In this document: piece by piece, positions 20,230 to 64,000 of the stretch
How positions within the stretch are numbered: the first letter of the stretch is position 1
Layout: each line of letters starts with the position of its first letter
Origin: Tubiluchus corallicola
Lineage: Eukaryota; Animalia; Priapulida
Length of the DNA: 64,000 bases
NCBI GenBank assembly: GCA_030141605.1
Contig: JAQGDQ010000503.1
Span: 96,978 to 160,977 of the forward strand
Direction: 5' to 3'
The notes under the pieces: model-generated
The model's database searches: none
Seen by the model: the letters and a program-made list of their open reading frames with translations, nothing else
What the model was told of the DNA's origin: nothing
Made by a program: the position numbers and the translations under genes

Positions 20230-20310
20230 TGCAAGAGTTCAACATAAGTGATAGAGTTATTTTAGTCTTCATTTTTATTTTATTTTTTTATTTTTATTTT
20301 TTTATTTTTT

Positions 20311-21837: not shown

Positions 21838-21979
21838 CGAATTATTGAAATTCCGGCAATTCTTAAACTAAGTCCAACTATATTAGTGTCCAATAAAAGG
21901 GCAACAAAACGTTTTATAAAAGTGAACTGCAAACAATTGACACTAAAAAATTGTATCACCTAACATCAATCTATATAAC

Positions 21980-26640: not shown

Positions 26641-26944
26641 ATCTGTTAAATTAAAACTATAAATAGCTGCCATACATAATTTGATGTTGAGTTTTAACAG
26701 CCTGTAAAACAGACGTTTTATACAGCAAATGTGCTGGCGGAAAGTATTATGGCAATACACACCTACATATGAACAAACGCACTCTCTCCCTATAACTTGC
26801 TAAATTTGGCTTAATTGTACACATGGATCTGCACTTATAAATTATTGTTGGTCTTCAAGACTGACAAATGTGTGTGTGCCCTAGACAAGCATACGTAACA
26901 CCACCATACACCAAGTGTGCCACACTACAGTACTCTATATTTAC

Positions 26945-34076: not shown

Positions 34077-34109
34077 TTAAGAAGCTTTATTAAGTTTTTA
34101 TAATAATTT

Positions 34110-34585
34110 TGTGAAAGTTATTTATGAAGTTGAAATTGAACACTTGTAGAAAACAACTAAACACAAGATTACATGTTTGCACAAAACTAAACACTTTTAT
34201 TGCACTAAATACACAGTAAAATGCACAAGTAAAATGAAGATCACAACTGCTGCACAGCACTGAGTGTGTGACAGAGAGACAGTGTGTCCCATGAGTTGCA
34301 CGACTGCACTGCCTGAGACAGAGAGACAGTGTGTCCCATGAGTTGCACGACTGCACTGCCTGAGACAGAGAGTGACTAGCAGTGAAATCTAGCCAGTTTA
34401 TATAGGTAGAGAACTATGCAAAAACTTGGCTTCACATATCCCATTACAGTGAAATAGGGGAGATACAATGAGTTTGAATATTCACTGGACCGAACAATTG
34501 TACTAAGGGTGAGTTGAACTAGTAAATGTTAAAGTAACTAATCAATAGTTGGCAGCACCTAAAATATACAGTTACAACTTTCACA
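34110..34585 (-). mobile_element. Solo LTR with 5-bp TSD (AATTT), left copy
   Basis: TGTGAAAGTT...AACTTTCACA inverted termini with AATTT on both sides. Internal TATATAAA and AATAAA on the minus strand. Confidence 0.85.
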
Positions 34586-34599
34586 AATTTCAAATACAA

Positions 34600-37500: not shown

Positions 37501-37501
37501 C

Positions 37502-37572
37502 GTAGTAGTAGTAGTAGTAGCAGTAGTAGTAGCAGTAGTAGTAGCAGTAGTAGTAGTAGCAGTAGTAGTAGT

Positions 37573-37602
<30 letters not shown>
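37502..37602. repeat. Compound (TAG)n/(CAG)n microsatellite (mirrored at about 44522-44623)
   Basis: Visible directly. Confidence 0.95.
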
Positions 37603-37604
<2 letters not shown>

Positions 37605-39128
37605 TACGACCACGAGAAATTTTTGATCAGTCTTCGATTTTCTGAAGCTTCACAACCAGCAGAATGGGGGCATTTGATTGGCTACTGTATTTAAGCACCA
37701 GTACCACTAAACATCGTCGATAGAATGGATGGGTGAGCAGTGGAAAACTGCTTCTGACTGTTTAAACACTATTTATCTTGCAGAGTAACAGAGTACAGAC
37801 ATATGAATAAAAAATTATCCTATAAAATTTTATATTATTAATATTAATGCCTTTGCTCCACAAGGGAGTTATTTTTTTTCCAATTTTGGATGTGTCCATG
37901 AGTTTAACAAATATATGGTTTTGATTGAGAAGGGTCCAGAAAAGAGTCCATTAAAAGAAAACTGTTGCATGTTCAAAAAAGCTGGATGCACAAAAAGAAA
38001 CAGGAAATCGGCAGAAAAATTCTACCGCAGGTGGCGCTTCAGTGCCACGTGAGTTAATTTGCATGAGGAAAATTTGTATGGAAACCGATAGAAGCAAATA
38101 AAATCGGAAATTATAATTCACCTGGCGCCATCTATGATGTAGCATAGCAATCGTTTTCATTGCATCAGCAAATAACTGTCTTGTTCCTAAAGACTGCATG
38201 TGTCCTAAACCAAGAAATCATTAACATTTAGTTGCCTATTAGTTTTGTGAAAATTCAACACGTCATTTATGCCACAACATAGAACAACATTATGCAATTT
38301 AGTATGTGCATAGCTATCTATCACTTTTTCATCTAGATCTCTTCTCGCATTACACGCAGATTACAGCAGATCAGATTACAAGCAGATTCACCAATTTCGT
38401 TACTGCCCATTCTTTGAAGCCTCCTCCGGTGATTATGATTTTGCCAGTTCGAGATGACCTGTTTGATGTCAGGCATAGAAATCGTGAATTGCTGATTGCC
38501 ATTTGTTTGACTTTTATGGCAAGTAGCGGTTGGTTCTATCTGTGATATTTGAGAACATATTAATCTAACTTTGCTACAAGCAAGACAGTGGAGCAATTTA
38601 ACGTGGAGGCTTCACCTTGAATCTGTCACCAGCTTGTCTGCTGCAAACACCTCGCTGTTTCTGCAAGCTAAACATTTTTTGCAGTTCTCGCTGCTTTTCA
38701 CAAGGGAAACAAGGTGATCACCAGCTGCAGCTCATCAAACACTAGATGTCAGGTGTTCCGCGTGCCAACAAATGAAGCAACCGACCTTGCATGAATTTTT
38801 GTAATTTTTAGTGGTGATAATAAGATTTTGCGCGATTTTTTTTATTACGTCACTTATATAAATTAATATACTGAAATCAATGCACATAGGAATTTTGCAC
38901 TAATTGCTGGATATAAAAAAATATTAAATGAATAGCATTTGTGAAAGTCATGTTTAAAGTTGTAGATCACTCACTTTGTAGAACAAGAATAAAAAACTAT
39001 ACTGCATATTTGCACACAAAAGTGTTTATTAAACTACATACACATGAGTAAAATGACTGTTGACAGGCGAGCACGCAGATCTCGCATGGACGTATACTTA
39101 CACATTCTCTTGTATACTCACATTTGCA

Positions 39129-42400: not shown

Positions 42401-43133
42401 GCAGGACACTCTCATTCTCAGTGTTCAGTGCAGGACACTCTCATTCTCAGTGTTCAGTGCAGGACACTCTCATTCTCAGTGTTCAGTGCAGGACACTCTC
42501 ATTCTCAGTGTTCAGTGCAGGACACTCTAACTCTCAGTGTTCAGTGCAGGACACTCTCACTCTCAGTGTTCAGTGCAGGACACTCTCATTCTCAGTGTTC
42601 AGTGCAGGACACTCTCACTCTCAGTGTTCAGTGCAGGACACTCTCACTCTCAGTGTTCAGTGCAGGACACTCTCACTCTCAGTGTTCAGTGCAGGACACT
42701 CTCACTCTCAGTGTTCAGTGCAGGACACTCTCATTCTCAGTGTTCAGTGCAGGACTCTCTAACTCTCAGTGTTCAGTGCAGGACACTCTCACTCTCAGTG
42801 TTCAGTGCAGGACTCTCTCACTCTCAGTGTTCAGTGCAGGACACTCTCACTCTCAGTGTTCAGTGCAGGACACTCTCACTCTCAGTGTTCAGTGCAGGAC
42901 ACTCTCACTCTCAGTGTTCAGTGCAGGACACTCTCACTCTCAGTGTTCAGTGCAGGACACTCTTATTCTCAGTGATCAGTGCAGGACACTCTCATTCTCA
43001 GTGTTGAGTGCAGCAGTCATTTTACTCATGTGTATGTAGTTTAATAAACACTTTTGTGTGCAAATATGCAGTATAGTTTTTTATTCTTGTTCTACAAAGT
43101 GAGTGATCTACAACTTTAAACATGACTTTCACA
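39457..43133 (+). mobile_element. Solo LTR inflated to 3.7 kb by an internal satellite
   Basis: TGTGAAAGT...ACTTTCACA termini and near-perfect 5-bp TSD AATAC/AATGC. Shares TAGGTGCTGCCA, CGGTCCAGTGAAT, CCTATATA and CATTTTACT blocks with the LTR at 47531-47947. Confidence 0.8.
39672..43013. repeat. 27/29-bp satellite (CTCAGTGTTCAGTGCAGGACACTCTCATT and variants), ~3.3 kb
   Basis: Visible directly; more than 100 units. Confidence 0.98.
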
Positions 43134-44520
43134 AATGCTATTCATTTAATATTTTTTTATATCCAGCAATTAGTGCAAAATTCCTATGTGCATTGATTTC
43201 AGTATATTAATTTATATAAGTGACGTAATAAAAAAAATCGCGCAAAATCTTATTATCACCACTAAAAATTACAAAAATTCATGCAAGGTCGGTTGCTTCA
43301 TTTGTTTATAGTGTTACAGTGTTTATTGTGATAAAAACGTTGTTTTATACAGCACATATTCACGCAGAACACCTGGCACCTAGTGTTTGATGAGCTGCAG
43401 TTGTTGACGACCTTGTTTCCCTTGTGAAAAACAGCGAGAACTGCAAAAAATGTTTAGCTTGCAGAAACAGCGAGGTGTTTGCAGCAGACAAGCTGGTGAC
43501 AGATTCAAGGTGAAGCCCCCACGTTAAATTGCTCCACTGTCTTGCTTGTAGCAAAGTTAGATTAATATGTTCTCAAATATCACAGATAGAACCAACCGCT
43601 ACTTGCCATAAAAGTCAAACAAATGGCAATCAGCAATTCACGATTTCTATGCCTGACATCAAACAGGTCATCTCGAACTGGCAAAATCATAATCACCGGA
43701 GGAGGCTTCAAAGAATGGGCAGTAACGAAATTGGTGAATCTGCTTGTAATCTGATCTGCTGTAATCTGCGTGTAATGCGAGAAGAGATCTAGATGAAAAA
43801 GTGATAGATAGCTATGCACATACTAAATTGCATAATGTTGTTCTATGTTGTGGCATAAATGACGTGTTGAATTTTCACAAAACTAATAGGCAACTAAATG
43901 TTAATGATTTCATGGTTTAGGACACATGCAGTCTTTAGGAACAAGACAGTTATTTGCTGATGCAATGAAAACGATTGCTATGCTACATCATAGATGGCGC
44001 CAGGTGAATTATAATTTCCGATTTTATTTGCTTCTATCGGTTTCCATACAAATTTTCCTCATGCAAATTAACTCACGTGGCACTGAAGCGCCACCTGCGG
44101 TAGAATTTTTCTGCCGATTTCCTGTTTCTTTTTGTGCATCCAGCTTTTTTGAACATGCAACAGTTTTCTTTTAATGGACTCTTTTCTGGACCCTTCTCAA
44201 TCAAAACCATATATTTGTTAAACTCATGGACACATCCAAAATTGGAAAAAAAATAACTCCCTTGTGGAGCAAAGGCATTAATATTAATAATATAAAATTT
44301 TATAGGATAATTTTTTATTCATATGTCTGTACTCTGTTACTCTGCAAGATAAATAGTGTTTAAACAGTCAGAAGCAGTTTTCCACTGCTCACCCATCCAT
44401 TCTATCGACGATGTTTAGTGGTACTGGTGCTTAAATACAGTAGCCAATCAAATGCCCCCATTCTGCTGGTTGTGAAGCTTCAGAAAATCGAAGACTGATC
44501 AAAAATTTCTCGTGGTCGTA

Positions 44521-44552
<32 letters not shown>

Positions 44553-44624
44553 ACTACTACTACTGCTACTACTACTACTGCTACTACTACTGCTACTACT
44601 ACTGCTACTACTACTACTACTACG

Positions 44625-47515
44625 GCTGTAACGATTGAAAGGGTTAGATATTGCGTAAGTAAAATTAGCAAAGTCTTTTCGCCAGCTAACATTTTCATAT
44701 GTGACATTCCTGTGATATTTAACAACAAATATGTTTCTGGAAAAATTCAAATTACGGATACCATTAATAAGACCGTATATCAATTGAATAGCGAATTGTA
44801 TAAATTAACCAGTAATGAGGACTTGATATTGAGCGAAGTGGCAAAATTTTTCGTTAATAATGAATTGATAGCGATGGATGGATTACACCTGAGTAGAACA
44901 GGTGTTGATAAATTAACCCAGGTAATTTCTCACTGCTTGACCAGTGACAATAAAAGGTGGATTGCCCCTAAACGGTATAATAGTAGGCCAGTAAAGCCCA
45001 TTATAGGACAAACAGCGTCAATCACACAAAGCAAGGAAATGAATGATAATTTTATACTACAGCAAACATTGAGAAGACCAGCTTTGCTGCCAACGCCGGT
45101 ACCTGATCAGGATTGTTACATTGTAACAAACAACAAAACCACTGATCAAGACCTACTCGTGAATAATCAACAACACAATAGCACATACGCACAGGTACTA
45201 CACAAACAACCAAAACAGATTAGCAACCCAACCACTGGCTCGCATGCATCAAATTGTGACGCTGAAAAGAAAGAACAATTGAATGAGCTCATTTGTAACG
45301 CTGTGCAAAAGTTCTTAAACAGGTTTCTGTAATTAAAATTGTATCTAAGAAGCTCCCGTTGTAGCAAACAAATTTATTTCGAGTTTCCCGATTGAATTAA
45401 AATATAAATTGACGTTTTTATGTTCAGTTTAAAAATAACGTTTTTTGCTATTTATGCTACTATTTAGTGCCGCCTGTACTTCATATAATGTACCCACTAA
45501 TGATGAAATGTGTGCATGTTATAGGCCTATCGTCAACATTAGCCTGTTGGCAATCAGTCTAACTCTCATAATTTACGTTACTCTTTCTAAGTCACACAAT
45601 AGTAAACTAATTATGGTGCTGATAAATTTAAGCGTAATACCTTCATATATTTTACTAGTGGACCCATGTTGCCTTAATCCTGATTTTGTGCTTTATACTC
45701 TTGACTTAATGGGTACTGTAATACAGATCTTAATTTATATTTCAAAAATTTTCATATGTGTAAAAGCTAAATGTAATTCCCATAAAATTTTATTTATTGC
45801 TTCGATATGCATCTTACAGCTGTACAATGGCAACACCAACTTACCTGTAATAATTAAGAATTATCATAGTTTTAAACTTAAAAATTGGTCTGATTTTAAT
45901 AATTTCAACTTTAATTATGACGTTCAACCACTTGTAAAAAATATTTTTAACTCTGTGTACTTCCTGAAAAGGCTAATGCGTTCAATGCTGCATTGCTGCT
46001 TGTGCAAAACGTGCTTAAATTTCTTTAAAATTAATTATTTTAAGTATATTACTCATTATAGGTTGTATAGAGTCAAACCCAAGCCCATTAACAACAACAT
46101 TAACAGCAGCAGCAACACACACAATAATTTAACTCTGGAAATAAACAATTTTATTAATAAATTCAAGAAAAATATAAAATTTCTTAATATTAATATTCAA
46201 AGTTTAACAAAAAAAAACACTGGCTTCTCAAAGATAATGTACACGCATCGGAAAACCTAGTAATTGTTATCACCGAAACTTGGTTGAACAAAAAAATATC
46301 AAGCAAATCTTTACAATTACCTAAGCACATCCTAATGCGAAAAGACAGATGCAATTCGAGAAACGGAGGAGGGGTAGCAATTTACATCCCAGCACATTTC
46401 AAATCAACTGAAGCAAAAGGCATAAGAACTAATAAAATCGAAACTTTATGGTACAACATAGAAGATTACCTAGTTGGAATTATTTACCGGTCCCCAAATC
46501 AAATATATAAAACCTTCCTAAAACATTTTTCGGTAGAAGTTTGACGAGCTGTTTTCGAAAACAAGCGTATCCTTATAATGGGAGATTTTAACATTGACAT
46601 TAATAATACCAAAAGTCCTGAATGCAAACAATACATTGAACTATTAAATAAATTCTGTCTAAATGTAACCGACAAGAATATCTAAAACATCATCTACATT
46701 AATTGACCACTTCATCTCAAATGACAATACAAAATTTGTCTGTCCTACGACAGCTGCCCTTGTGATTATTCTGATCACAATTTTGTTATTATAGCGGGTC
46801 AAAAATCCCCCTCATCAAATTTTGACTCTAATCCATCATACAAACTCATAAGAGACTACACATAATTCAATGAGACATATTTTCTTGACGATTTAGCTAA
46901 AATGAGTTGGAAAGAAATCTATTACACTACTAATATTGATGCCCAAGTTGAACTTATTACAAATAATATTGAATACTGTCTTAATTTGCACGCCCCCTAT
47001 AAACGTATAAAAACTTTTGCTCAACCCGAACGTAAGCGAAATACTAAAAGTCCATGGACTACTCAAGAACTGGATTTACTAAGAACAACGAAACAACACT
47101 TAAATAAATTGTGGACAACTACCAAATCTAAACATAATTATAAAAAAGCGAGAAATTCATTTAATAATCTAAACAAATCTTTAAAAAACAAATATATACA
47201 GCAAAAATGTAATAAGGCAACCTCTTCTAAAGATAAATGGGAAATAATTAATAATGTCATTAACAGATATACAAACAAGCGAACCCATATCACGGAACTT
47301 ATAATTGACAATAAAGTAATAAAGTAAACTAAAGACATTGCAAATGCTCTTAACGCTACTTTCATTAATTTGGGAAATTTCTGCTGGCCATCTAATCATA
47401 ATAGTAACTACAGCGGAAAAGCAGAAAATCATAAAACAGAAATAGTCATATAGGCAATATTATATGGAGTTATATATAACTTATCAGCTGAAGAGGGCTA
47501 TACTGCATGTTATTA
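44625..47515 (+). mobile_element. CR1-group LINE 5' portion, right-arm copy
   Basis: ORFs 44712..45332, 45445..46260, 46284..46544 and 46902..47327 mirror the left copy, with the same esterase and APE motifs. Confidence 0.85.
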
Positions 47516-47530
47516 ATTGTATTTGAAATT

Positions 47531-47947
47531 TGTGAAAGTTGTAACTGTATATTTTAGGTGCTGCCAACTATTGATTAGTTACTTTAACATTTACTAGTTC
47601 AACTCACCCTTAGTACAATTGTTCGGTCCAGTGAATATTCAAACTCATTGTATCTCCCCTATTTCACTGTAATGGGATATGTGAAGCCAAGTTTTTGCAT
47701 AGTTCTCTACCTATATAAACTGGCTAGATTTCACTGCTAGTCACTCTCTGTCTCAGGCAGTGCAGTCGTGCAACTCATGGGACACACTGTCTCTCTGTCA
47801 CACACTCAGTGCTGTGCAGCAGTTGTGATCTTCATTTTACTTGTGCATTTAGTGCAATAAAAGTGTTTAGTTTTGTGCAAACATGTAATCTTGTGTTTAG
47901 TTGTTTTCTACAAGTGTTCAATTTCAACTTCACAAATAACTTTCACA
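47531..47947 (+). mobile_element. Solo LTR with 5-bp TSD AAATT, right copy
   Basis: TGTGAAAGTT...AACTTTCACA, AAATT at 47526-47530 and 47948-47952, CTATATAAA and AATAAA inside. Confidence 0.87.
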
Positions 47948-47980
47948 AAATTAATATAAAAACTTAATAAAGCTTCTTAA

Positions 47981-49660
47981 CCTTTATCTTACCATAAATG
48001 GAACATACTTTTTATGGCGCCATCGCAGCTCACATGCTTAATTTATCGAGGCAATTCTACCTATCGTGATGTCCTGACGTGTCTCTTACTTTGTTGGGAA
48101 ACTGAACTTTTTATATTGAGATTCAAATTTTTCATGGTTGCCCAACTAAGGCCTAAAAATACGAAATTTGACCGCGCAATTTCAAATTGGCCTGAAAAAG
48201 TGCAGAGTGAACTTCAGTGGAAATTGGCTGCACTGCCTAAAAGCTTACACTCCAAGGTATTGATTGGCAATATAACAGATCGTAATTCGGTTGCTAAGTA
48301 CTAAAAAAATACTGTAATATTTTGATGTTCCATTTATGGAACATTGGTAGGATCAGCACGTTTTAGGTTGCAGTGTACAGTGGAGCCTGGCTCCCCACAG
48401 TCATGCTTACAGTGTACAGTAGACAGTGTGCAGCTTATTGCCAAGTAGCCATTGTTCACTGCCATTGTTCTTGACAATACTTTCCTAACAAGTTGAGTGA
48501 AACACAACATTTTGTGGATACCAGCGTTACAAAACACGTATTTTTGCTATTGTTCTAGCTATTGTAGTCAATGTAAATTGTAATTTATCTATTTTAGCGT
48601 GTGTTACGTTATTAGCATAGTGTGTTGTAAGTTGACCTAAATAGAGCTCGACCAAATTTTTCTAGGTTATGGATACCACGTTCTTCTACAGGAGAAAGTC
48701 CTCACAGGTCAGATGGCAATGTCTACGTAACAATGTGGAAAGTCCTCACAGGTCAGATGGCAATGTCTACGTAACAATGTGGAACGACAAGTCAGTTGTA
48801 GCGGTAGCTAGCAACTATCAAACCCATCTTCTGATTCACCAGGTGAAAAGGAGAACAAAAGGGGGAGAGAAGGACGTTGCCCAGCCTCACCTTGTCAATG
48901 CATACAATCAGGGTATGGGCGGAGTGGACCTATTTGATCGCCTTCTAGGATCGTACAGGCCAATGATCAGAGGAAAAAAGTGGTACTGGCCACTCTTCCT
49001 AAATGCAGTGAACGTATCCATTGTTGCAGCGTGGCGGCTTTACTGTGTCCTTCATCGTGAGACAGTGATGACTCATTTGGACTTTCGGCGGAATGTGGCT
49101 TTGTGCCTACTAAAAGCGGACACTGAACCATTTGCTGTTCGAGGCGTAGGTCACGGGCCTATGGGCCTTCCAGTCGACGCGAGGTTTGATGGTCGAAATC
49201 ACCAGGCTGTGACAACGACTCAGGGACGATGTAAAGTATGTAAAACAAACACGAAACGAATGTGCAACAAGTGTGGAGTGCGGCTCCACAGTGAGAGGCA
49301 GAAGGACTGCTTTATCGTGTACCACCGCCGCTAGGGCGAGGTGTATATGCACATGCAGTGTGATGTTCAGTCGTGCACATGAAGAAATATCATGTGTTGT
49401 ATACATACATTGTGTTGTCATGGTATTGCTGTAAATAAACATCGAAAATGCAATGCAACATGCATCAATCTTCAGTGTGTCCTTTTGTAAGTAATACGTG
49501 CCGATCTTCCCAATGTTCCATAAATGGAACATTCCATATCTCCGTAACCCGTGAAGGGATTTGCCTGAAACTTGTTACATACAATAGGTATGTTAATAGA
49601 ACACATCCATGTAAAAATGAATAAAACGGACAGCTAGAAGTATACGCGGTAAGATAAAGG
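47981..49660 (+). mobile_element. Internally deleted piggyBac, right-arm copy
   Basis: TTAA at 47977-47980 and 49661-49664 with the same TIRs. About 1.1 kb of the transposase is deleted, with a ~44-bp tandem duplication at the junction (about 48694-48781). Confidence 0.93.
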
Positions 49661-50807
49661 TTAAACTAAAAAAGGACATTTAAATATTTTTGTTGTTGTT
49701 CTTTCATGCAATACTGGCTATCCTCAGTTGGTTTAATGACACTCGAATACCAAGTCAGTGCAGCGCATACTTGTACACAGTGAAATGATTCTGAATTGTG
49801 ATCTCAAAACAGAAAAACAACCCAACAGTTTAACACAGGGTATAAAAAACTTCTAATGACCCTTGGTAGGTGTTATGGGCAAATTACCCATATAATTTGT
49901 TTTTTTCCCGCATGAGGGAGCCAAAAGAGTTGACTGGTTATAGCAGAGACTTGTAATGTGGATAATGCAATTTTTATGTGAGAAATTTAATGTCATGCTT
50001 CAACCATAAACAGTGTGTGCTCTCTAGCCAAACGAAGTAAGTGATTTTTGTAAATCTAAGTTTATTAATTAGAAAGCAATTTTCTGTGTAATTTTTTTTT
50101 GTTCAAATTTCTGTAGTTTTGTTCAAATTGCATTACTGAAAATTTTATGTATTCTTTTGTTTTTCTCCTTTAGAAAATAAAGACTGCAATAAACACCTTA
50201 TGAAAGGAACTGTCGTGTTTTGCTGTGTTAACAGTAGGGGTCTTGGAGAATTTGCAGTCGAAAAAAAGAAACCGTGCTGCACGATTGTGTATTACTATTT
50301 TTAATGCATGTGCAATGATGGATATTACGAGTTAGTTTTGTTAGAACGCTTTTTCTACACAGTCTTGAGTCAATTTTCAGCACCTTCGAAAGTCAGTTTA
50401 CCGATATATTGCAAAGCCAGCCCATGTTGCTTTACTTTGCTTAAAAAAACTCAGATTTACTTTGCTTCAATTATGCTTTGTTTCAAACACTATTGCATGT
50501 TTTTGTAAAACAGTTGAGTTTTCTTAGTGAATCAAAACATATTTAGCAGTCGTAATTAAGGGTGATTACAAATGCATACATAATATATCGCTCTGATCCT
50601 ACTGTCCTATATGTATTAAAAATGTCATGGTTTCCACCTAGAAGCTATAGCGATATTCGTACAGAGATTAACTTGTCTATGTGTAATCTTAAAACATTTA
50701 ATATCAGCGTAAGATAGTAACAAATACTTTACTTTACTGTAACAATTTTGAGTTATACGTACTTTACTGTAACAAATACTTTACTTTACTGTAACAAATA
50801 AATGACA

Positions 50808-53800
50808 CTTGAATGTAGTTCAGATCTTACTAGCTAGTGGAGCTGATTGTATGATTGTAATGTCTGTGACAAGTATGGACAAACTGCTCTGATGCTAGCA
50901 GCTTATAAGGGACATGTGAATGTAGTTCAGCTCTTACTAGCTAGTGGAGGTGATTGTATGATTGCAATGTCTGTGACAAGTATGGACAAACTGCTCTGAT
51001 GCTAGCAGCTTATAAAGGACATTTGAATGTAGTTCAGCTCTTACTAGCTAGTGGAGCTGATTGTATGATTGTAATGTCTGTGACAAGTACGGACAAACTG
51101 CTCTGATGCTAGCAGCTTATAAAGGACATGTGAATGTAGTTCAGCTCTTACTAGCTAGTGGAGCTGATTGTATGATTGTAATGTCTGTGACAAGTATGGA
51201 CAAACTGCTCTGATGCTAGCAGCTTATAAGGGAATGTAGTTCAGCTCTTACTAGCTAGTGGAGGTGATTGTATGATTGTAATGTCTGTGACAAGTATGGA
51301 CAAACTCCTCTGATGCTAGCAGTTTATAAAGGACATTTGAATGTAGTTCAGCTCTTAGTAGCTAGTGAAGCTGATTGTAACATAAGTGACAACAATGGAT
51401 GGACACCTGCCATGAAAGCAGCTTACAATGGACATGTGGATGTAGTTCACTTCTTACTAGCTAGTGGAGCTGATTATGATGGATGGACGACTCTTATGAA
51501 AGCAGCTTATAAAGGACACGTGAATGTAGTTCAGCTCTTAGTAGCTAGTGGAGCAGATTGTATGACTGTAATGTCTGTGACAAGTATGGACAAACTGCTC
51601 TGATGCTAGCAGCTTATAAAGGACATTTGAATGTAGTTCATCTCTTACTAGCTGGTGGAGCTGATTGTATGATTGTAATGTCTGTGACAAGTACGGACAA
51701 ACTGCTCTGATGCTAGCAGCTTATAAAGGACATTTGAATGTAGTTCAGCTCTTACTAGCTAGTGGAGCTGATTGTAATGTCTGTGAGAAGTATGGACAAA
51801 CTGTTCTGATGCTAGCAGCTTATAAAGGACATGTGAATGTAGTTCAGCTCTTAGTAGCTAGTGAGGCTGATTGTAACGTAAGTGACAAAAATGGATGGAC
51901 TCCTGTCATGAAAGCAACTTTTAAAGGACATGTGAATGTAGTTCAGTTCTTAGTAGCTAGTGAAGCTGATTGTAATGTCTGTGATAAGTATGGACAAACT
52001 GCTCTGATGCTAGCAGCTTATAAAGGACATTTGAATGTAGTTCAGCTCTTACTAGCTAATGGAGCTGATTGTAATGTCAGTGACAGGCTTGGACAGACTG
52101 CTCTTATCTGGGCAGCTAAGAAGGGACACTCGAATGTAGGGAAGGAGTTAAGTTGCTGGTGCTGCTGACTTAAATTGCTGCTTAGAAGTAATGCTGACTG
52201 TAATGTCAGTAATAAAGATACATGGACGCCTCTTATGTATGCTACACGTGCTAGCAATTATGCAACCATATTGAATCTTCTGGCTTTTGGTGCTATTTGT
52301 AATGCCAAATCCAAAGACGGCTGGTCTGCACCTTTGATTGCTGCTGGTAACAGAGATGAACAAGCCATAAACTTGTTATGGCAGAGAAGTTGCATTCTAA
52401 CATCATGTAAATACAAGGATAACAAACAGACTTTTCCCATGGCAATGTTACTGTTGAATGTCTCTTGGCTCTTGACCGCAATACTGATTGTAATGGTTGT
52501 GATGCATTTGATGTGACAGCTCTAATGACTGCAGCTGCACACGGGCATCATGAAACGCTGGAATTATTACTTTGTCATGGTGCTAATTAAAGGTGGAAGC
52601 ACAGAAACACTACGCATTTTACTGCAACATTTGTCAGGAGTTCCCAGCTCTAGCAATAAGGGTGAACAGAGAGCTCTTATAGCTGTAGTCCCAGCTCTAG
52701 CATAAAAGGACGAACAGACAGCTCTTATAGCTGTAGTCAGAGCTCTAGCAATAAGGATGAACAGACAGCTCTTATAGCTGTAGTCAGAGCTCTAGCATAA
52801 AAGGATGAACAGAGAGCTCTTATAGCTGTAGTCCCAGCTCTAGCATAAAAGGATGAACAGACAGCTCTTATAGCTGTAGTCAGAGCTCTAGCATAAAAGG
52901 ATGAACAGAGAGCTCTTATAGCTGTAGTCCCAGCTCTAGCATAAAAGGATGAACAGAGAGCTCTTATAGCTGTAGTCCCAGCTCTAGCACAAAAGGACGA
53001 ACAGACAGCTCTTATAGCTGTAGTCAGAGCTCTAGCATAAAAGGACGAACAGACAGCTCTTATAGCTGTAGTCAGAGCTCTAGCATAAAAGGATGAACAG
53101 ACAGCTCTTATAGCTGTAGTCCCAGCTCTAGCACAAAAGGACGAACAGACAGCTCTTATAGCTGTAGTCCCAGCTCTAGCATAAAAGGACAAACAGACAG
53201 CTCTTATAGCTGTAGTCAGAGCTCTAGCATAAAAGGATGAACAGACAGCTCTTATAGCTGTAGTCCCAGCTCTAGCATAAAAGGACGAACAGACAGCTCT
53301 TATAGCTGTAGTCAGAGCTCTAGCAATAAGGATGAACAGACAGCTCTTATAGCTGTAGTTAAAGTTGGAAGCACAGAAACACTACGTGTTTTACTCCAAC
53401 ATTTGTCAGGAGTTCCCGGCTCTAGCAATAAGTCGATTGCTACAATAGAGAGGTCTGAGCTAAGCCTACATTATTTTATAAATAAAAATGGTAAGTTTGA
53501 CAACACAGGTCTGCTGTACGGAAGTGGTCTTGACATTTGTAATAAAGAAGGTGACATTCCACTATACGCAGCTGCGCATTCACACACAGGTACAAGAAGT
53601 GACGTTACACAATGTTAACATGGAGTCTGCCTTAAAAAGCCAAACAATAAAGGGCTGACAGCACTGGATATATACAATTTAGTGAACGTAATAACAATGA
53701 ACGACGAGTATAAAGAAACAGTGGGCCACTTATTGTACATACCTGAGACGCACAAAGAGTGTAAACCACTGAAGAGAACACCTACCGAAGAAGACATAGC

Positions 53801-54015
53801 AGGATGTAAGAAAATCACTGGCATGCTGGAATTAAATTTTTTAGGAAACTTTCTGTTGTAGAGTCAGCTTGCCAGGGAATTGGTGAAACCAAAAAGGAGT
53901 TTAATTGTTTTCCTATATCAGTAGGAAGTTCTTCATCTGGCACGAGAATTGGCCGGATGAATACGATTTCTTAGTTGCCTTAAGGAAATTCAGTGATGGA
54001 AAATCTGAAACTTGT
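50808..54015 (+). pseudogene. Ankyrin plus cGLR-like pseudogene, right copy
   Basis: Ankyrin ORFs 51268..51603, 51665..52168 and 52175..52516. VGSSSSGTRIG-[frameshift]-PDEYDFLVAL at about 53920-53982. Confidence 0.75.
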
Positions 54016-54496
54016 AAATATAGAGTACTGTAGTGTGGCACACTTGGTGTATAGTGGTGTTACGTATGCTTGTCTAGGGCACACACACATTTGTCAGTCT
54101 TGAAGACCAACAATAATTTATAAGCGCAGATCCATGTGTACAATTAAGCCAAATTTAGCAAGTTATAGGGAGAGAGTGTGTTTGTTCATATGTAGGTGTG
54201 TATTGCCATAATGCTTTCCGCCAACACATTTGCTGTATCAAACGTCTGTTTTACAGGCTGTTAAAACTCAACATCAAATTATGTATGGCAGCTATTTATA
54301 GTTTTAATTTATCAGATTTGAACAAATAGGTTTATTGCCAATTTTTCACAAGTTTTCTAGGAATACATCGATGACCCCTCTTGTAGCTGCAACAGTTCGA
54401 CTGAGAGCCCCCGCCATTATTTTTGTGAGTGTTCAGACTATGACATACACAAAACACCATCATTGAATCAGCTTTGTTATTATCAGCACATAACTC

Positions 54497-55624
54497 ATGA
54501 GTGGAATTCTCCTCAAATTGTCGCAGAACTACACAAGGTCTACTAAACATTTGCTATGCATGTACTGGTGCGTAGATAATATGAAAAGGCACCCTGCCTT
54601 GGCTACAGGTATAATAGTTTATCTGTTTACCAGAAATCTCAACATAGAGTCTCAATTAGCAATAAATACTGGGGGCTTAATTGAGGACCCAGAGCATACT
54701 GTAATAGAGACAGCTGATTACTTTAAAACTGCTACCAAAGATGGCAAGGCAATGATTTACAATGCTTTATCCCTGCTGTTTTCAGAAGTTCCGGAGGAGA
54801 GAGAAAAAAGGTGGAAAAGGGTCAAAGCCGCCATTGCCTCTATGGGTTACGACCCTGACGAATGGAGTCTTGAAAGGACTGATGGCAAGTGTGGGCAGCA
54901 GTACAAGGATGGACATATGCAGCCCGCCAGAAAGGCCATCAAGAAGTATTTGTCTTTGACTGACGTCATCTGTGAAGAAGGGAAAGCCCTGGCAAACTAC
55001 ACTCTGGATATGATTGGCAAAAATGATCTCAAAGCTATTTTCTTCATAGAAAGCGCTTTCCAAGAGGTCCCAAAACTGTTCAACGCTAGATTGCTAGGAG
55101 AATCAGAAACAAGAGCATTTCTAAAAGCACTAGAGATAGCAGAAGATCGGAAGATGGCTACTGTTGAGAGAGATCCTGCTCTTCAGCATAAGAATTTCCC
55201 GATGATCCATGGGTTGACCATCTCTTTCCTAAAAGAACTTTTCTATCTTGGCTACTGCGGTCCATTCGGCCGACAAAATATTGATAATGCTTTTGGAGAT
55301 TTCTACAGAGACGTCCCTCTACCACCAACGATACAACGCAATAAGAGATCCATCAATGCTCTAGCTGTAGAGTTCAAGAAAAAATCCGAAGCAAAAGGGG
55401 ATGCGTATAGTGGGCGGTGGGGTTATTGGCAGTCTGACGGCAGCTTCCAAGATGATGGGGGCATCGACAAACAATTCTATGATGAAGAAGATCAGCCCTT
55501 TGATATGGAGGCCATGAAAGATCTAATTAAGACAATTAAGGCAAAAGGGGCAGGAAGAGATGGATCACAAGAGAAAGAAAGAAGAGACTCTGACGATTTC
55601 GATTATGCAAGTTATCGTAGATAA
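54497..55624 (+). CDS. Endogenous viral element: probable Mononegavirales-like nucleoprotein, 5'-truncated and fused in frame to a host-derived ATG
   Basis: Intronless 375-aa ORF with higher GC and purine content than its flanks. It looks mostly helical, has LQHKNFPMIHGL (compare the L...(N/S)FP.L motif of borna/nyami-like N) and ends in an acidic/basic tail. Bases 54565-55637 are absent from the left arm. Confidence 0.6.
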   Translation: MSGILLKLSQNYTRSTKHLLCMYWCVDNMKRHPALATGIIVYLFTRNLNIESQLAINTGGLIEDPEHTVIETADYFKTATKDGKAMIYNALSLLFSEVPEEREKRWKRVKAAIASMGYDPDEWSLERTDGKCGQQYKDGHMQPARKAIKKYLSLTDVICEEGKALANYTLDMIGKNDLKAIFFIESAFQEVPKLFNARLLGESETRAFLKALEIAEDRKMATVERDPALQHKNFPMIHGLTISFLKELFYLGYCGPFGRQNIDNAFGDFYRDVPLPPTIQRNKRSINALAVEFKKKSEAKGDAYSGRWGYWQSDGSFQDDGGIDKQFYDEEDQPFDMEAMKDLIKTIKAKGAGRDGSQEKERRDSDDFDYASYRR

Positions 55625-56260
55625 AATTTCTTCTTTCTAAATGTGATTGAATTGTAACCTATTCACAATTTTGGACTTTTGAATCAATTTTACTTCTGTA
55701 TAACTAATAGAATGATGTACATTCTAATGATGTTAAAACGAACAACCAATATGGAAAGAATTCCATAACTAAGCAAGCAATACAACTTAGGAATTCATTA
55801 CCGACATCACTAAAACACAGCAGCTCTTTATCAATATTCAAGTCTAAATTAAAAAACATTTAATGACTCGTTTTGAATATCCGACATACGAACACGATGA
55901 TACTTACTCAAATCATAATTTCCTTTTTCCTAGACCTTACTAAACTAGTTTATATTTATTTTTTGAATTTCTAGTTGCACTTATAGTTTAGCTTGCACCA
56001 GACGCATTTGTCCAGAACAGTGTATGTTTTTTATATGAACTAACACTGATTGTCTGTCTTTTAATATGATGGTCAATGTTTTATAAAATGGCAATTAAAG
56101 ATTTTACTACTACTACTACTACTAGCAGCATTTCGGTTTTGGATCTGGAAGAAAATGTCATACTGGCAACCCTGCTGGGAACGAGGTTGGTATTGTTTAT
56201 GGACAAGACGAACATTGTTTCGCCATTTTTCTGCCCTTTGTTCACCACCAAAACGGCACA

Positions 56261-56965
56261 ATGAGCCGTATCAAGCAGAAGTGGAAAGCTATTGAGCTCG
56301 TCACGAAAATCGAGATTATCGAAAAAATCCAGGCTGGTGCAAAACAAAGCAAAATTTGTGAAGAATACGGCCTAAATATAGTCCTCCCCGTGGAGTAGTC
56401 GCAACTGCTGAAGGACCAATGCCTCTTTCTTCTACCCGATCCTATCCTCGTAGAATACGCCTTCCTACCTCCCATTATGGAAACTTCGTTTATGATCCAG
56501 TAGTGGAAAACAAAGTAAAATTTGTGAAGAATACGGCCTAAATAAACAGACGGTATCCAGCATTTTCGCGTCTAAGGAGAAGCTGAAAGAAGCTTACGAA
56601 AAAAATCAAGTCACAGACAAATGGAAGAAATTGCGAACATCAGATATAGAGCCACTGGAGAAAGCTATGACTATCTGGTACATGCAAATGCGGTGTGTAA
56701 AGGCCTGCCGAGCGGAGGGAATATCTTACTCGCAGAGATGTCTGTACAAGAAAGAAACGTTTGGGACTTCATCGCCACTGAACTAAACTTATCGGAAACA
56801 ACGTTCGAGAAGTATGTGAGTTGTGATTCGGAGCTGGCTACCGACGAGAGAGATGATGATAGTGATGATGACGATCACCATATATTATGTTTTTCGCAGA
56901 GACACGTGACATCTCGGCATATCTTTGGCAAATTACATTATCGTCAGTTTCAACAACAATTTTAA
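56261..56965 (+). pseudogene. Tigger/CENP-B-like transposase remnant, right copy, interrupted by a ~130-bp foreign insert
   Basis: Mirror of 25195-25749. The insert at about 56378-56506 is flanked by a duplicated ~37-bp AAAACAAAG.AAAATTTGTGAAGAATACGGCCTAAAT. Confidence 0.75.
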
Positions 56966-57689
56966 TGGTGTAGAGTGCTGCTACTAATAAAAATTGTAAG
57001 AAATTTTAGCCAATTTGTAAACTAGTTGACAATTTTTCTGACAAGTAGAAACTGAGTTTTGCAAATCTCAGTTTGGAACGCTATTCAGTAAACTAAAATG
57101 CATTAGTGATTCATTACTTACTTTCGATTATGGATGCATTCGTTAATTTAGTTTGCATAACTAAAACATAACTAAAACTTTTGCATAACAATAAATAAGC
57201 ACTTATTTGCAGAAATAACATTCATGTGCAAGACACCGTCTACAAGCATCAATGCCATGCTGCCACAAACAATCCATCACCCACTGACAAATGAAGCACC
57301 AGTCAATTCTACATTGTTTGCAACTTTTTATATTTGAGAATAGCAGTGAAAACAAGCATATTTAGAACAATGATGATGAGTCCAATAATTATGAAGAATG
57401 TGCCGAAAAATGCTGCTGCGAGTACGAAAGTGTTGCTAGTTACACTCTGATTAGTGCCATTATTCATTTCAGTTCAAAAATGATTAACTGTTTCAACTGT
57501 TTCATTAGCAACAAGAACCTCTTTAGCAGAATACACGCATATATTACACAGAATGTATAGTTAACTGCTACATTGAGAGGCAGAAATTAAGCAATGTCCT
57601 TAGAGTGATTATTTTGAGAGATCGTAATGCACAAAGAAAAAAGGTTCAGTATAGCTAACATGTCCACTATGTTAAGATAATACGTTTCA

Positions 57690-58930
57690 GAAATGGAGCA
57701 ATGCTTATAGGCCAGCAGAACTCCTCTTGGCTGTGAACACCAATAACGGTGTAGAGCGGATGAACGAGGATCTGAAATATGGATTTCTCAGCAAGAGGCG
57801 GCAGTGCTCTTTAAGTGAACTGCTCGTTATTCCAATAAAACACTTTCTGCCAGCAAAATATCAGCGGTACTATTTTTTAAAAGTTCATCTACCATATCTG
57901 TTATTATTTTTCATTGCACAATAACAGAAAGTTACAGTTACATTTGTAAACAAACAGTTGAGATTATTAAAGTGGAATATTATTTTCTAACATAAATTCC
58001 TGATTTTCAGATTAGCAGCACCTTTCTGAGAGAGACAGGGTGACCAAATCAGGATATTAAATTTGTTTATTTTGTAATACGGTTGTTATTTGGCTTGGAG
58101 TAGCTTTTGCTAGTTTCTCAAGTATTCTTGTTTGTGTAGTCCTCTGAAGTTACAACGGTTAAAGTTGTATGTTATATATTGGTGAAGAAAATGTCTAAAT
58201 AAATTTGTCTAAAATATATTTGCAAACTGTATTTTTAATTCAGATCTCGTACATTTTCGCAGCTATGAGCAGATGAATGTGAAAAACTGTCACTTGTACA
58301 AAAGTTGGTCTGTGCAACTCCCATCCTGGCTGCAGAACAGGCCAAGAACAATTTTTGAGGATATGTGGGACAAAATGGAGAAAGTGAAGCCGTCACAGGT
58401 ACATGTATGGTATACTTGAATCAGAAATTACCAGCAATAATGGATTTCGGTTTATAAGTATTACATCACATTTCTTAGTGTTCGGCAATATATTGCAATA
58501 CATGATGTTGTTGATGTAATGTGCTTTCTGTACAGGTTAGCGATACAATAAACGTAGTTCCATATAAGTGAATCTTCAATAGGCACCATTTGCTGCTATA
58601 ATGCCTTGTATTTTCAGGTTAAGTACTTACTGTTTCATATTCTTAGGTAGCCTTAGTTACAGTAATTGGACATAAGACGTTCAATGTCTCCAGCGAACAA
58701 GATGCCTCCACTATTTATACCGTAAAATTTGGTAATGGTGATGAGTGCTGTTCTTGCTCTTGCCCTTCATTCCAACACTCGAGAATGCTGTGCAAGCATT
58801 TTTTCGCCGTCATCAAGGCAAATGTAGGTTTCGGTTGGGAGGACATTAGCAGCCTCTATAGGGAACACCCAGCTTCGGGAAGAGTTGGCGAGCTCGTTCA
58901 AGTTTTAAGCAAAGCGGTATCTCTCTGCAA
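57690..58930 (+). pseudogene. MULE-SWIM transposase remnant, right-arm copy lacking the upstream exons and the 405-bp LTR
   Basis: NTNNGVERMNEDLKYGFLSKRRQCSLSELL..FLP exon, WLQNRP exon and SWIM exon. Confidence 0.75.
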
Positions 58931-59076
58931 GTAAGTTATATAGATTGATGTTAGGTGATACAATTTTTTAGTGTCAATTGTTTGCAGTTCACTTTTATAA
59001 AACGTTTTGTTGCCCTTTTATTGGACACTAATATAGTTGGACTTAGTTTAAGAATTGCCGGAATTTCAATAATTCG

Positions 59077-60491
59077 TTGTATTGGTTGTGTGTATTGTAC
59101 GCTTCTTGCGTAGGGATATACTTAGAAAATAAGTTAGCACCAATTCTCTACATCCCTGCTGATATCACTTATTCAGATTTGAGAAGAGCAATCAAACACC
59201 TTAGTAGGGGTAGGATTAAACTCACCCAAGTGAACGAAACAATCAACTTGCCTCAACTATCTGAGTGAGACTACCTAGGATGGAACCAAGCACAAAAGCC
59301 AGAAGGAAAGGCCACTATTTACACCACATTGCTAGGCCGTTTGGAATAACCAGCACTAGTATAAACAAATTTCTAGAAGTATTAGGAAGTACTCACTTCG
59401 AACCAGGGGGTCTTGTGTGCCTAGCTGAAGGAGACGGATCAATTTTATCAGGGTTTTTGCATCTCATGAACCCATTGTATGTAGTTTATAATAGTTTAGT
59501 AGAAACCAATATGTCCCTTTTAGAGGACACTTTCAATTCTAAGCCTTTGAACACATTTTGTCGTCATTGTGTCGAATACTGGGAACAGATCCTATGGAAC
59601 AACCTTACTGACGGTGATCTATTTAACCCAAAGACAATCAATTCATTAAAACATCAGTTCAGACGAGGTGAAATCTCAGTGTTGACTTTTGATGCTGAAG
59701 TCATGAATCCGACATATTACTGTGATCTTGTCGAAGTTGCAATAGACCTCTGTTTTGAGTATAAACCTAAAAAGGTCCTACTCAAACTGATTGCAGAAAA
59801 TCTATCAGATAAAACAATATCTAGACTAACTCAACTAGGATTCCAATATGCCACATACTATATAATGAAACCATGGTCAAGTTCTCTAGAAAACACTGAA
59901 TGTATCTTTTACTGTGATAGGCTAGCCTGTGCAGACACTGTAAACATCACACCCGCCCAAGGAATAAATGACATCATTAATTTCTATTATGCAGGAAAAG
60001 AACCTCACAACTATACTGAGGTTATGCTGGAATTGCACTCTAGGTTGTCTGAAACTTACTCCAGCCTCCGATGTATACCATCAAGCACATGGATCATTGA
60101 TCCGATTGAAGAAGTTAGATTCAAAGAAATCTGGTTTGATGAAACTGACCCCTTGGGGACGTTTGCATTAAAAGGAATCGGATCATTACTCTATCCAGGG
60201 ACTAACTCCTATTTTCAGGCTATGTGGGTTTTTTATGTCTTAGTGAAGTCCAAAAAGCACAATTTCCACTACAATGTGAGAAATTGGAGATCATACTGTA
60301 GAAATCTTTGTGCAAGATGCAGACTGTTTGAAACAAAATGTATTTGTCACCAACCCAAATGGGTGGGGCATGGTTTAAGCGAACAAAATGAGGAGTGGCC
60401 CAATAGATATGGAAGAACTATCATTAGGACACTGACCCAAATGGCGCTCAAAAGACCAGGTGCCTTTGATAATATGTTGTCTTACTTATAA
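59077..60491 (+). pseudogene. L-protein EVE, copy 2, with a 112-bp frameshifting deletion
   Basis: Nearly identical to 20311..21837 but 112 bp shorter. The deletion joins CTGAG to TGAGACTACC at about 59265, leaving the MTase/CTD (59265..60491) open. Confidence 0.85.
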
Positions 60492-61028
60492 AAAAAATAA
60501 AAAAATAAAAATAAAAAAATAAAATAAAAATGAAGACTAAAATAACTCTATCACTTATGTTGAACTCTTGCAGAAATGGATCTCTGTTATAGTTGGCTTC
60601 ACGAACAATTAGGAAGAGACCACCCCTCTTGCCTCCGCCCCAGATAAATGCACATCAGCGCCACTAAACCTTCCCCAGAACTCCACTGATGCTGAAGTAT
60701 ATCTCCCAAACATTGAAGCTGAGGAGGAAGGGCTTTATCTTTTTAAAGGATTGTTCGTGAAGCCAACTATAACAGAGATCCATTTCCACAGAAACTCCAC
60801 ATGAACGCGATAATCCGTGGTTACCACGAAAGAAGCTTTGCTGGTATAACAGACTTCAGTAATAACCAGGGCGTCAAGGTAAGAAAAACTCCAAGTTAGA
60901 AAGATTCTTCTAAAAATAGGGGCTAACAAGAAAATAATGATCCTTTAACACTGTATCGCAGAAAGAATGAAACCTATCAGCCAATGTTGCTTTTTCTTCT
61001 TTTTTGACTTAGTAAATATCTAAAATAT

Positions 61029-61433
61029 TGTACTGCAGGGCTGTGATGAGATAGTGTAATACTGGCAGGGGAATACAGCAGACTTCTCAGGTGTGCGTGT
61101 GAACGTGGCTTTAACTAGCACATCGACTCTTATTCTGACTTTGTGTTAGTAGGAGCCACTAGTCACGTGCACACCTGAGCTTATAAAAAGGGTAGGTCTG
61201 CTGTAGATCCTGGTCAGTGGTCGTCTCACCTCAGCTCTGTTCACACTTCAGGCTTGCTCTATTCTACTCTGTTCGGTAAGCTATTTGGAATATTTTTTTG
61301 TAATAAATTGTCATTTTGATTTTATTATTCATTTTGGTTTTGGTTTGGCATTGACATGTTAGTTGAGACATGCCGCACGGTGTAGGCCGCGGTGCCATCC
61401 GTTCTGCCTCCATTGACAGCGGAGAGCAGTCCA
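61029..61433 (+). mobile_element. 405-bp solo LTR, copy 2
   Basis: ATAT-TGTACTGC...GCAGTCCA-ATAT. Confidence 0.85.
61164..61280 (+). promoter_or_regulatory. Putative Pol II promoter in the LTR: E-box, TATA box, Inr-like element and splice donor
   Basis: CACGTG 61164-61169, TATAAAA 61182-61188, TCAGT 61214-61218, GTAAG 61276-61280. Confidence 0.55.
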
Positions 61434-62295
61434 ATATATTTGCAAACTGTATTTTTAATTCAGATCTCATACATTTTCTAGCTATGAGCAGATGAATGTG
61501 AAGAGCTCTCACTTGTACAGAAGTTGGTCTGTGGAAGTCCCATCCTGGCTGCAGAACAGGCCAAGAACAATTTTTGAGGATATGTGGGACAAAATGGAGA
61601 AAGTGAAGCCGTCACAGGTACATGTATGGTATACTTGAATCAGAAATTACCAGCAATAATGGATTTCGGTTTATAAGTATTACATCACATTTCTTAGTGT
61701 TCGGCAATATATTGCAATACATGATGTTGTTGATGTAATGTGCTTTCTGTACAGGTTAGCGATACAATAAACGTAGTTCCATATAAGTGAATCTTCAATA
61801 GGCACCATTTGCTGCTATAATGCCTTGTATTTTCAGGTTAAGTACTTACTGTTTCATATTCTTAGGTAGCCTTAGTTACAGTAATTGGACATAAGACGTT
61901 CAATGTCTCCAGCGAACAAGATGCCTCCACTATTTATACCGTAAAATTTGGTAATGGTGATGAGTGCTGTTCTTGCTCTTGCCCTTCATTCCAACACTCG
62001 AGAATGCTGTGCAAGCATTTTTTCGCCGTCATCAAGGCAAATGTAGGTTTCGGTTGGGAGGACATTAGCAGCCTCTATAGGGAACACCCAGCTTCGGGAA
62101 GAGTTGGCGAGCTCGTTCAAGTTTTAAGCAAAGCGGTATCTCTCTGCAAGTAAGTTATATAGATTGATGTTAGGTGATACAATTTTTTAGTGTCAATTGT
62201 TTGCAGTTCACTTTTATAAAACGTTTTGTTGCCCTTTTATTGGACACTAATATAGTTGGACTTAGTTTAAGAATTGCCGGAATTTCAATAATTCG

Positions 62296-62952
62296 TTGTA
62301 TTGGTTGTGTGTATTGTACGCTTCTTGCGTAGGGATATACTTAGAAAATAAGTTAGCACCAATTCTCTACATCCCTGCTGATATCACTTATTCAGATTTG
62401 AGAAGAGCAATCAAACACCTTAGTAGGGGTAGGATTAAACTCACCCAAGTGAACGAAACAATCAACTTGCCTCAACTATCTGAGTTTCTATCTTCTAGGA
62501 TCATAGTTGCCCACAAGTTTGAAGATATCAAAAACATCAACATCAAGACCAGGCAAACAGCAACAACATCTAGAATCACACCGCCCATGGGTACGGTGAG
62601 ACTACCTAGGATGGAACCAAGCACAAAAGCCAGAAGGAAAGGCCACTATTTACACCACATTGCTAGGCCGTTTGGAATAACCAGCACTAGTATAAACAAA
62701 TTTCTAGAAGTATTAGGAAGTACTCACTTCGAACCAGGGGGTCTTGTGTGCCTAGCTGAAGGAGACGGATCAATTTTATCAGGGTTTTTGCATCTCATGA
62801 ACCCATTGTATGTAGTTTATAATAGTTTAGTAGAAACCAATATGTCCCTTTTAGAGGACACTTTCAATTCTAAGCCTTTGAACACATTTTGTCGTCATTG
62901 TGTCGAATACTGGGAACAGATCCTAAGGAACAACCTTACTGACGGTGATCTA
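62296..62952 (+). pseudogene. L-protein EVE, copy 3, truncated at a fold-back junction
   Basis: Matches copy 1 up to NLTDGDL. The rest of ORF 62296..63066 reads into inverted MULE intron sequence. Confidence 0.85.
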
Positions 62953-64000
62953 ATGAAGGTCCACTTATATGGAATACATTTGTGTATCGCTAACCTGTAC
63001 AGAAAGCACATTACATCAACAGCATCATGTATTGCAATACATGTTGCGAACACTAAGAAATGCTGATGTAATACTTATAAACAAATCCATTATTTGCTGG
63101 TAATTTCTGATTCAATTATACCGCACATGTACCTGTGACGGCTTCACTTTCTCCATTTGTCCCACATATCCTCAAGAATTTATTCTTGGCCTGTTCTGCA
63201 GAACAGGATGGGACTTCCACAGACCAACTTCTGTACAAGTGAGAGCTCTTCACATTCATCTGCTCATAGCTAGAAAATGTATGAGATCTGAATTAAAAAT
63301 ACAGTTTGCAAATATATTGGACTGCTCTCCGCTGTCAATGGAGGCAGAACGGATGGCACCGCGGCCTACACCGTGCGGCATGTCTCAACTAACATGTCAA
63401 TGCCAAACCAAAACCAAAATGAATAATAAAATCAAAATGACAATTTATTACAAAAAAATATTCCAAATAGCTTACCGAACAGAGTAGAATAGAGCAAGCC
63501 TGAAGTGTGAACAGAGCTGAGGTGAGACGACCACTGACCAGGATCTACAGCAGACCTACCCTTTTTATAAGCTCAGGTGTGCACGTGACTAGTGGCTCCT
63601 ACTAACACAAAGTCAGAATAAGAGTCGATGTGCTAGTTAAAGCCACGTTCACACGCACACCTGAGAAGTCTGCTGTATTCCCCTGCCAGTATTACACTAT
63701 CTCATCACAGCCCTGCAGTACAATATTTTAGATATTTACTAAGTCAAAAAAGAAGAAAAAGCAACATTGGCTGATAGGTTTCATTCTTTCTGCGATACAG
63801 TGTTAAAGGATCATTATTTTCTTGTTAGCCCCTATTTTTAGAAGAATCTTTCTAACTTGGAGTTTTTCTTACCTTGACGCCCTGGTTATTACTGAAGTCT
63901 GTTATACCAGCAAAGCTTCTTTCGTGGTAACCACGGATTATCGCGTTCATGTGGAGTTTCTGTGGAAATGGATCTCTGTTATAGTTGGCTTCACGAACAA
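62953..64000. repeat. Right arm of a second inverted repeat (reverse complement of about 60750-61797), running off the window end
   Basis: Contains the same novel junction (TAGATATTTACT-AAGTCAAAAAAG) seen inverted at 61001-61022. Confidence 0.88.
63318..63722 (-). mobile_element. 405-bp solo LTR, copy 3
   Basis: Matches 22700-23104, with ATAT flanks. Confidence 0.85.

Follow-up and report, generated by a model that had tools for sequence, protein, structure and literature searches.

The window, by which we mean the whole 64,000-nucleotide stretch of Tubiluchus corallicola DNA that was analysed, contains a large inverted repeat with arms at 19792-39059 and 43014-62952. The identity between the arms is patchy, ranging from 93 to 99.8%, and is interrupted by many kb-scale indels. 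A 3.95-kb spacer containing a 29-bp satellite (satellite stretch 3.3 kb) separates the arms. Satellite arrays are present at 3771-11146 (35-bp units) and at 39671-43013 (29-bp units), the latter filling the inter-arm spacer, and a fragment of a DUF6729 protein is found at 11932-12546 (E 1e-41). Both arms carry an ankyrin-repeat unit (50798-53861 and 26984-30200) built of 107-bp and 48-bp tandem repeats, which is interrupted by stops in either copy and is located upstream of the insertion site described below, at a distance of about 0.7 kb. They also carry a piggyBac-like transposase (PF13843, E 2e-72; 31865-33406 and 48666-49334), about 1.1 kb of which is found in the left arm only. Very high-copy short repeats at 55733-56080 and around 61100 (summed depth in sequencing run X1 up to 300,000) adjoin the two viral elements of the locus.

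Three segments of about 1.1 kb are confined to one arm. One of them, in the right arm, is the subject of this analysis:

19792..39059, minus strand: left arm of the inverted repeat (arm comparison)
43014..62952, plus strand: right arm of the inverted repeat (arm comparison)
54565..55637, plus strand: arm-specific insert, 1073 bp, GC 43%, likely a nucleoprotein-gene EVE (arm comparison, spanning read contig)
54563..54564, plus strand: TA at the left junction; the second TA is at 55638-55639
26394..26395, minus strand (left arm): empty site with a single TA (arm comparison; joint present in read contigs)
54497..55624, plus strand: 375-aa ORF of 23 flank codons and 352 insert codons (ORF translation)

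An arm-specific insert and its empty site

The earlier note on this DNA had described an arm-specific segment with its empty site in the opposite arm, an uninterrupted frame from the flank ATG at 54497 (375 aa), a TA at both ends and no poly(A), and our results confirmed each of these points. The right arm reads flank, TA, 1073 bp, TA, flank and in the left arm a single TA, at 26394/5, stands between the flanks, which leaves 1075 bp extra with a 2-bp microhomology. In the empty arm the frame from the flank ATG stops right at the insertion site. The insert also has an in-frame ATG of its own at 54581, absent from the earlier note, that gives a protein of 347 aa and is the only one with an A at −3 among the ATG contexts compared. 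Its open frame of 352 aa can be set against a longest frame of 187 aa (mean 90) in 2000 shuffles. At the insert ends there was neither a poly(A) nor a terminal inverted repeat (5/29 end bases match). A 9-bp direct repeat is present at 54571-54579, just before the own ATG, and at 55616-55624, over the stop; it was reached by 53 of 10000 random pairs in a post hoc count, and could be a viral gene-junction signal.

Both junctions were found in public contigs. A contig from run X1, whose label as DNA was guessed, spans 54535-55707 with 0 differences at a depth of 109.6, and the empty-site joint (54562>55638) is present in X1 (85.6) and X2 (3.6). X1 and X2 are the same sample and possibly the source of the assembly, and they therefore confirm the junctions rather than represent a second individual. 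In run X3, which comes from another sample of a different study, contigs lie on the insert and over the right junction, and no empty-site joint was among its listed joints. Four of the six listed runs entered this comparison. The insert is carried by 2 samples of 2 studies, the identity and kind of X3 not being on record. Run X5 covers just 9 of 30 bins, so that missing cover there is no evidence. A second copy of the insert at 88% identity or more was not found in the read contigs, and the depth of the insert is that of one contig, which argues against a close parent gene.

The two arms meet at a 3.3-kb satellite, and together with the patchy identity and the many kb-scale indels this would be expected if they were two haplotypes of one locus misjoined head to head, with the insert as a heterozygous presence/absence EVE. 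The depths of the insert and the left-arm junction are equal (86-110 in X1), which suits either model. However, the homology ends at both sides, 610 bp of unmatched DNA precedes the satellite, one TRF array has no inverted copy, and the DNA past the tail of the viral L element differs between the arms. Furthermore, X3 has the insert and, at a distance of 700 bp, a 166-bp skip of the left type. The asymmetry of the spacer speaks for a real duplication, which we consider the probable origin of the arms, and misjoined haplotypes are a less likely though serious alternative. That alternative is compatible with the identity of the insert as a nucleoprotein (N) gene and takes away only the in-cis empty site.

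Nucleoprotein profile signal in the insert

The suggestion of the earlier note that the product is nucleoprotein-like was supported by a custom profile test, and standard searches and predicted folds lent it no support. The insert had no match in Pfam or among PDB sequences, no homologue in protein sets of 5.8 billion and of 1.84 billion representatives, just unnamed or weak bacterial clusters in the ESM Atlas, and nothing in viral and metagenome contigs or by exact look-up. As comparators we gathered 131 viral loci with motif patterns. The insert did not match the bornavirus N family PF06407, which 8 comparator N proteins match at E 7e-5 or better and to which the first ORFs of loci L019, L025 and L026 belong by match. 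A phmmer comparison with 376 viral ORFs gave a best E of 1.2. Two single-sequence AlphaFold models were helical and, with a pLDDT of 37 each, unusable, and Foldseek found no match at E 0.001 in three runs with the models. A chuvirus N (Wenzhou crab virus 3) ranked first with the first model at E 0.29; it was not in the top 50 with the second and was given no weight.

N profiles were built from 8 borna/nyami-like N, from 16 chuvirus-like N, and from both plus one further ORF (25 sequences). With hmmsearch the insert scored −1.6 to −0.1 bits, which 8-30 of 500 shuffles also reached, and hhalign was not significant (P 0.06-0.14), yet with all three profiles hhalign aligned residues 151-218 of the insert with the C-lobe core, a stretch that closes with an L-x-H-x-x-F-P motif. 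A glocal alignment of the insert with the 25-sequence N core gave a Z of 4.3, a score that none of 1000 local shuffles attained, whereas controls reached at most 2.9 (18 non-N viral proteins) and 3.1 (9 N proteins of other families). Over all 16 combinations of four core windows and four gap settings, 0-2 of the 647 natural viral decoys equalled the insert, although the first core windows had been picked after the hhalign match was seen and the scoring scheme was custom-made. This was further supported by sliding windows over the N core, which were not chosen by eye and gave Z 4.3-6.0 with a steady offset of 95-111, as compared to Z of at most 2.0 for 44 windows taken from profiles of G, F, HN, P and L (5 HN windows included). 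With the full-length N profile significance was not reached, 14-68 of the 647 decoys scoring as high, because its first 100 columns have no counterpart in the insert. The chuvirus N profile alone gave Z 3.3 in the glocal core test, N profiles restricted to a single family gave a weaker signal, with Z of at most 2.6 and 3.2, and no signal with the insert was seen for profiles of rhabdovirus N, mymonavirus N or the first ORFs of the L007/L004 group.

54686..55288, plus strand: alignment region with the N-lobe/C-lobe core of Monjiviricetes N, approximately insert residues 41-241 (custom glocal profile)
55181..55207, plus strand: L-x-H-x-x-F-P-x-(I/L), matching in register the aromatic-Pro motif found in the C-lobe of nyami/borna-like and chuvirus N (profile alignments)

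Six positions of the L-x-H-x-x-F-P motif are common to L023 and the insert; mafft --add placed the motif in another register. In the insert protein it lies at residue 207-212, as compared to 248-377 in 8 of the 9 comparators with the pattern. The motif is thus nearer the N-terminus, and the gene would be either 5'-truncated or natively short.

Taken together, these comparisons suggest that the insert protein is very probably a nucleoprotein. Since standard databases and folds give no evidence for N, the segment might instead be a non-viral orphan, that is a gene carried as cargo by a transposon, or a processed gene of the host, and a TA duplication is the target signature of Tc1/mariner elements. 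We regard this as improbable, as there are no terminal inverted repeats, no second genomic copy in the reads and no homologue in the 1.84 billion representatives, the profile signal is specific to N, and a viral neighbour shares composition and end motif with the insert. A Tc1/mariner element as such was rejected for the lack of terminal inverted repeats and of a DDE transposase. The putative viral gene lies within host DNA with host flanks on both sides, as in an nrEVE. Nucleoprotein EVEs are a well-described class, common in arthropods (PMC4384744), and the insert likely adds one from an unclassified virus lineage.

The neighbouring L element and a possible common source virus

Both arms also contain a fragment of a viral L protein that was absent from the earlier note. 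It consists of the methyltransferase and the C-terminal part, and does not include the RdRp core.

19794..21867, minus strand: left copy of the L element, with an open 518-codon frame and a 517-nt tail; its 5' boundary is not fixed (Pfam, phmmer)
59047..61008, plus strand: right copy of the L element, broken by a 112-bp deletion at 59266/59267 (arm comparison)
62266..64000, both strands: further partial L copies, in tandem at 62266-62952 (plus) and inverted at 63741-64000 (minus) (self-comparison)
55627..55636, plus strand: T-rich 10-mer at the insert 3' end, also present at the 3' end of the L element (window-wide count)

The copies in the two arms are 0.25% substitutions apart, and read depth points to about 3-4 copies of the element. 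The region 58213-64000 holds tandem and fold-back L copies with a SWIM-finger flank, which we take to be MULE-like, and this array exceeds the window. Near the C-terminus of the fragment there is a cysteine-rich, zinc-finger-like stretch (60300-60350). The tail (60560-60790; 20016-20229) has an inverted repeat of about 40 bp and is preceded by an A-rich run at the L stop. At 517 nt the tail exceeds 51 of the 53 comparator tails in length, and it had no viral ORF match at E 1.

Against PF14314 the L fragment scored E 4e-4 to 0.0014, below the cut-off. With phmmer it matched the L of L019 best (E 2.6e-16), followed by L006, L007, L025 and L005, and no chuvirus-like L was among the top 14 matches. 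A methyltransferase tree (226 columns, 62 rows) grouped the fragment with a support of 0.89 with six loci of a layout like that of Nyamiviridae/Artoviridae (PMC10010136, PMC6394706), the family labels of these loci being inferred from Pfam and gene order. L005 and L007 are sister to it in the tree (support 0.74); they are complete-looking mononegaviral genomes whose first ORFs have no Pfam family. The fragment sits on a long branch, at least 3.6 substitutions per site from its nearest neighbour, and no relative was found in the set of 5.8 billion proteins, in viral contigs or in metagenome contigs. By sequence, then, it appears closest to borna/nyami/arto-like mononegaviruses and not to chuviruses. 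The insert is comparable to the N EVEs of Jingchuvirales (PMC4384744) in that a chuvirus N profile contributes to its signal (Z 3.3 for that profile alone), but the neighbouring L scores with mononegaviral and not chuvirus L. A source virus in Jingchuvirales does not appear to fit this L, and for the insert this matters only if the source was shared.

Several features hint at one source for the two elements. The window contains four occurrences of the T-rich 10-mer, one at the insert 3' end and one at the 3' end of each of three L-tail copies, with a post hoc p of about 0.001-0.005. The 10-mer is of low complexity, and at the left L junction it lies beside a local duplication. In base composition the insert resembles the L fragment (A 0.33; TpA 0.72 vs 0.79), and the codon-usage correlation between them is 0.60, whereas for 7 frames of the host or of transposons it lies between −0.08 and 0.47. 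From codon usage and the 3'-end 10-mer we infer that the insert and the L fragment came from one source virus, near Nyamiviridae/Artoviridae. The earlier proposal of an undescribed mononegavirus as the source is plausible in the light of this borna/nyami/arto-like L on its long branch. Nyaviruses replicate in the nucleus, which would favour integration.

Should the 10-mer mark the end of a segment, N would have been the last gene of its segment and the virus would have had two segments, like Tapwovirus of the Nyamiviridae (PMC10010136). One locus would then have caught the 3' ends of both segments of such a mononegavirus lineage: the L segment, with its tail of 517 nt, and a small one with N at its end, each terminating in the 10-mer. 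This is a speculative and rather unlikely reading; the 10-mer forms the genome end in 0 of 53 comparator genomes. RNA2 of Tapwovirus carries several ORFs (PMC10010136), and here N would end a segment.

Probable insertion, age and possible function

We propose that a reverse transcriptase of a host retroelement made a cDNA of the viral N gene, and that end-joining put this cDNA into a chromosome break, rather than LINE target-primed insertion. The joining would have followed the divergence of the arms, with the insert representing most or all of the N gene, and the frame would still be intact since the insert is young. Our main reading, to which we give a probability of about 60%, is that the 1073 bp are a cDNA copy of the N gene of an unclassified negative-strand RNA virus, end-joined after arm divergence and so far probably functionless.

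Insertion by end-joining after the arms diverged had also been the conclusion of the earlier note, and it is likely from the evidence below, although the TA on which it drew is uninformative. The 112-bp deletion in the right L copy, an event of known polarity, likewise has a 2-bp microhomology, so that the TA can neither polarise the event nor serve as proof of insertion. Insertion is favoured by other observations. The 3' break lies one base past the shared terminal 10-mer and the GC content falls to 25% beyond it, the insertion flanks differ by 2.1% between the arms as compared to 0.25% for the L copies, and the left flank (54444-54564) has multi-copy depth in three runs, at 9-56x that of the insert as judged indirectly by bin arithmetic, which suggests multi-copy host DNA.

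These observations also bear on the possibility that the element predates the duplication and that the left arm lost its middle, in which case viral N would really begin at the ATG at 54497 and include the 68 bp from there to the insert. The frame does continue across the junction to an ATG, and counted from 54497 the motif falls at residue 235, nearer the 248-377 of the comparators than 207-212. Moreover, these arms contain kb-scale deletions as well as deletions with 2-bp microhomology. The position of the 3' break just after the shared motif, with 25% GC beyond, speaks against a loss in the left arm, as do the short flanks, which are host-like and differ by several substitutions where the L copies differ by 0.25%, and the indirect multi-copy depth of the left flank. 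We therefore hold an older element to be unlikely.

PMC10288550 describes EBLs with empty loci and with signs of LINE-1 activity, namely poly(A), 6-8-bp duplications and transcription signals. All of these hallmarks are lacking in the insert, which makes LINE target-primed insertion unlikely, and a LINE retrocopy was rejected as there is neither a poly(A) tail nor a 6-8-bp target duplication. Like EBLN (itEBLN, miEBLN-1), the insert would be a mononegaviral N with an open frame; unlike them it has no PF06407 match. For Aedes, PMC8048955 documents viral cDNA that was inserted with no retrotransposon co-integrated, as well as an anphevirus N nrEVE that is polymorphic. One closely comparable nrEVE case resembles the insert in being a recent RNA-virus fragment among DNA transposons, with no co-integrated LTR element and a known empty site. 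It differs in that the source virus of the insert lies beyond standard searches, the N frame is near-complete and the empty site is apparently in cis.

The earlier note had also taken the open frame with its flank ATG as a hint of EBLN-type translation, but both are expected by chance. An in-frame upstream ATG was present at 26% of 18114 sampled positions, so the flank ATG is no sign of exaptation and was rejected as such. Nonsense changes make up 4.7% of substitutions, and the probability of no nonsense at the observed distances is 0.59-0.94 when indels are ignored. An intact frame is thus expected at this age, and the ATG-less L fragment is equally open.

The frame, either fused or from its own ATG, might nevertheless be translated to an N that acts as a dominant negative and, like itEBLN, poisons the nucleocapsids of its cognate virus. 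The intact frame covers the N core, the own ATG has an A at −3, and the co-oriented ankyrin-repeat unit upstream could supply read-through; itEBLN (PMC6361761) and Flavi24 (PMC13643977) are precedents. However, intactness and flank ATG are accounted for by chance, the ankyrin unit is stop-broken in both arms, and there is no splice, promoter or selection evidence, which makes such a restriction function very improbable. If the insert is active at all, the likeliest route would be as a passive small-RNA (piRNA) source in a transposon-dense locus. This model has a counterpart in the N-only EVE of the dog whelk, likewise an invertebrate element, which PMC6085071 gives as lyssavirus-related and fixed in the samples, whereas the insert had no signal with the rhabdovirus N profile. 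We consider a piRNA source a likelier activity than translated restriction, with neutrality as the default.

A literature search linking nrEVE with empty-site and microhomology terms, which left most subscription journals outside its reach, found no paper. The gene was missed by all standard searches and came to light only through the arm-specific gap, which implies that EVEs of this kind are undercounted. The N and L elements provide paired markers for a virus lineage without a close relative in the searched collections. With filled and empty junctions that are known to the base and lack LINE hallmarks, the route of integration and a small-RNA effect, if any, can be tested directly, and if the bi-segmented reading is true, the locus would be a dated, base-exact record of LINE-independent capture with its pre-insertion site kept in the sister arm.
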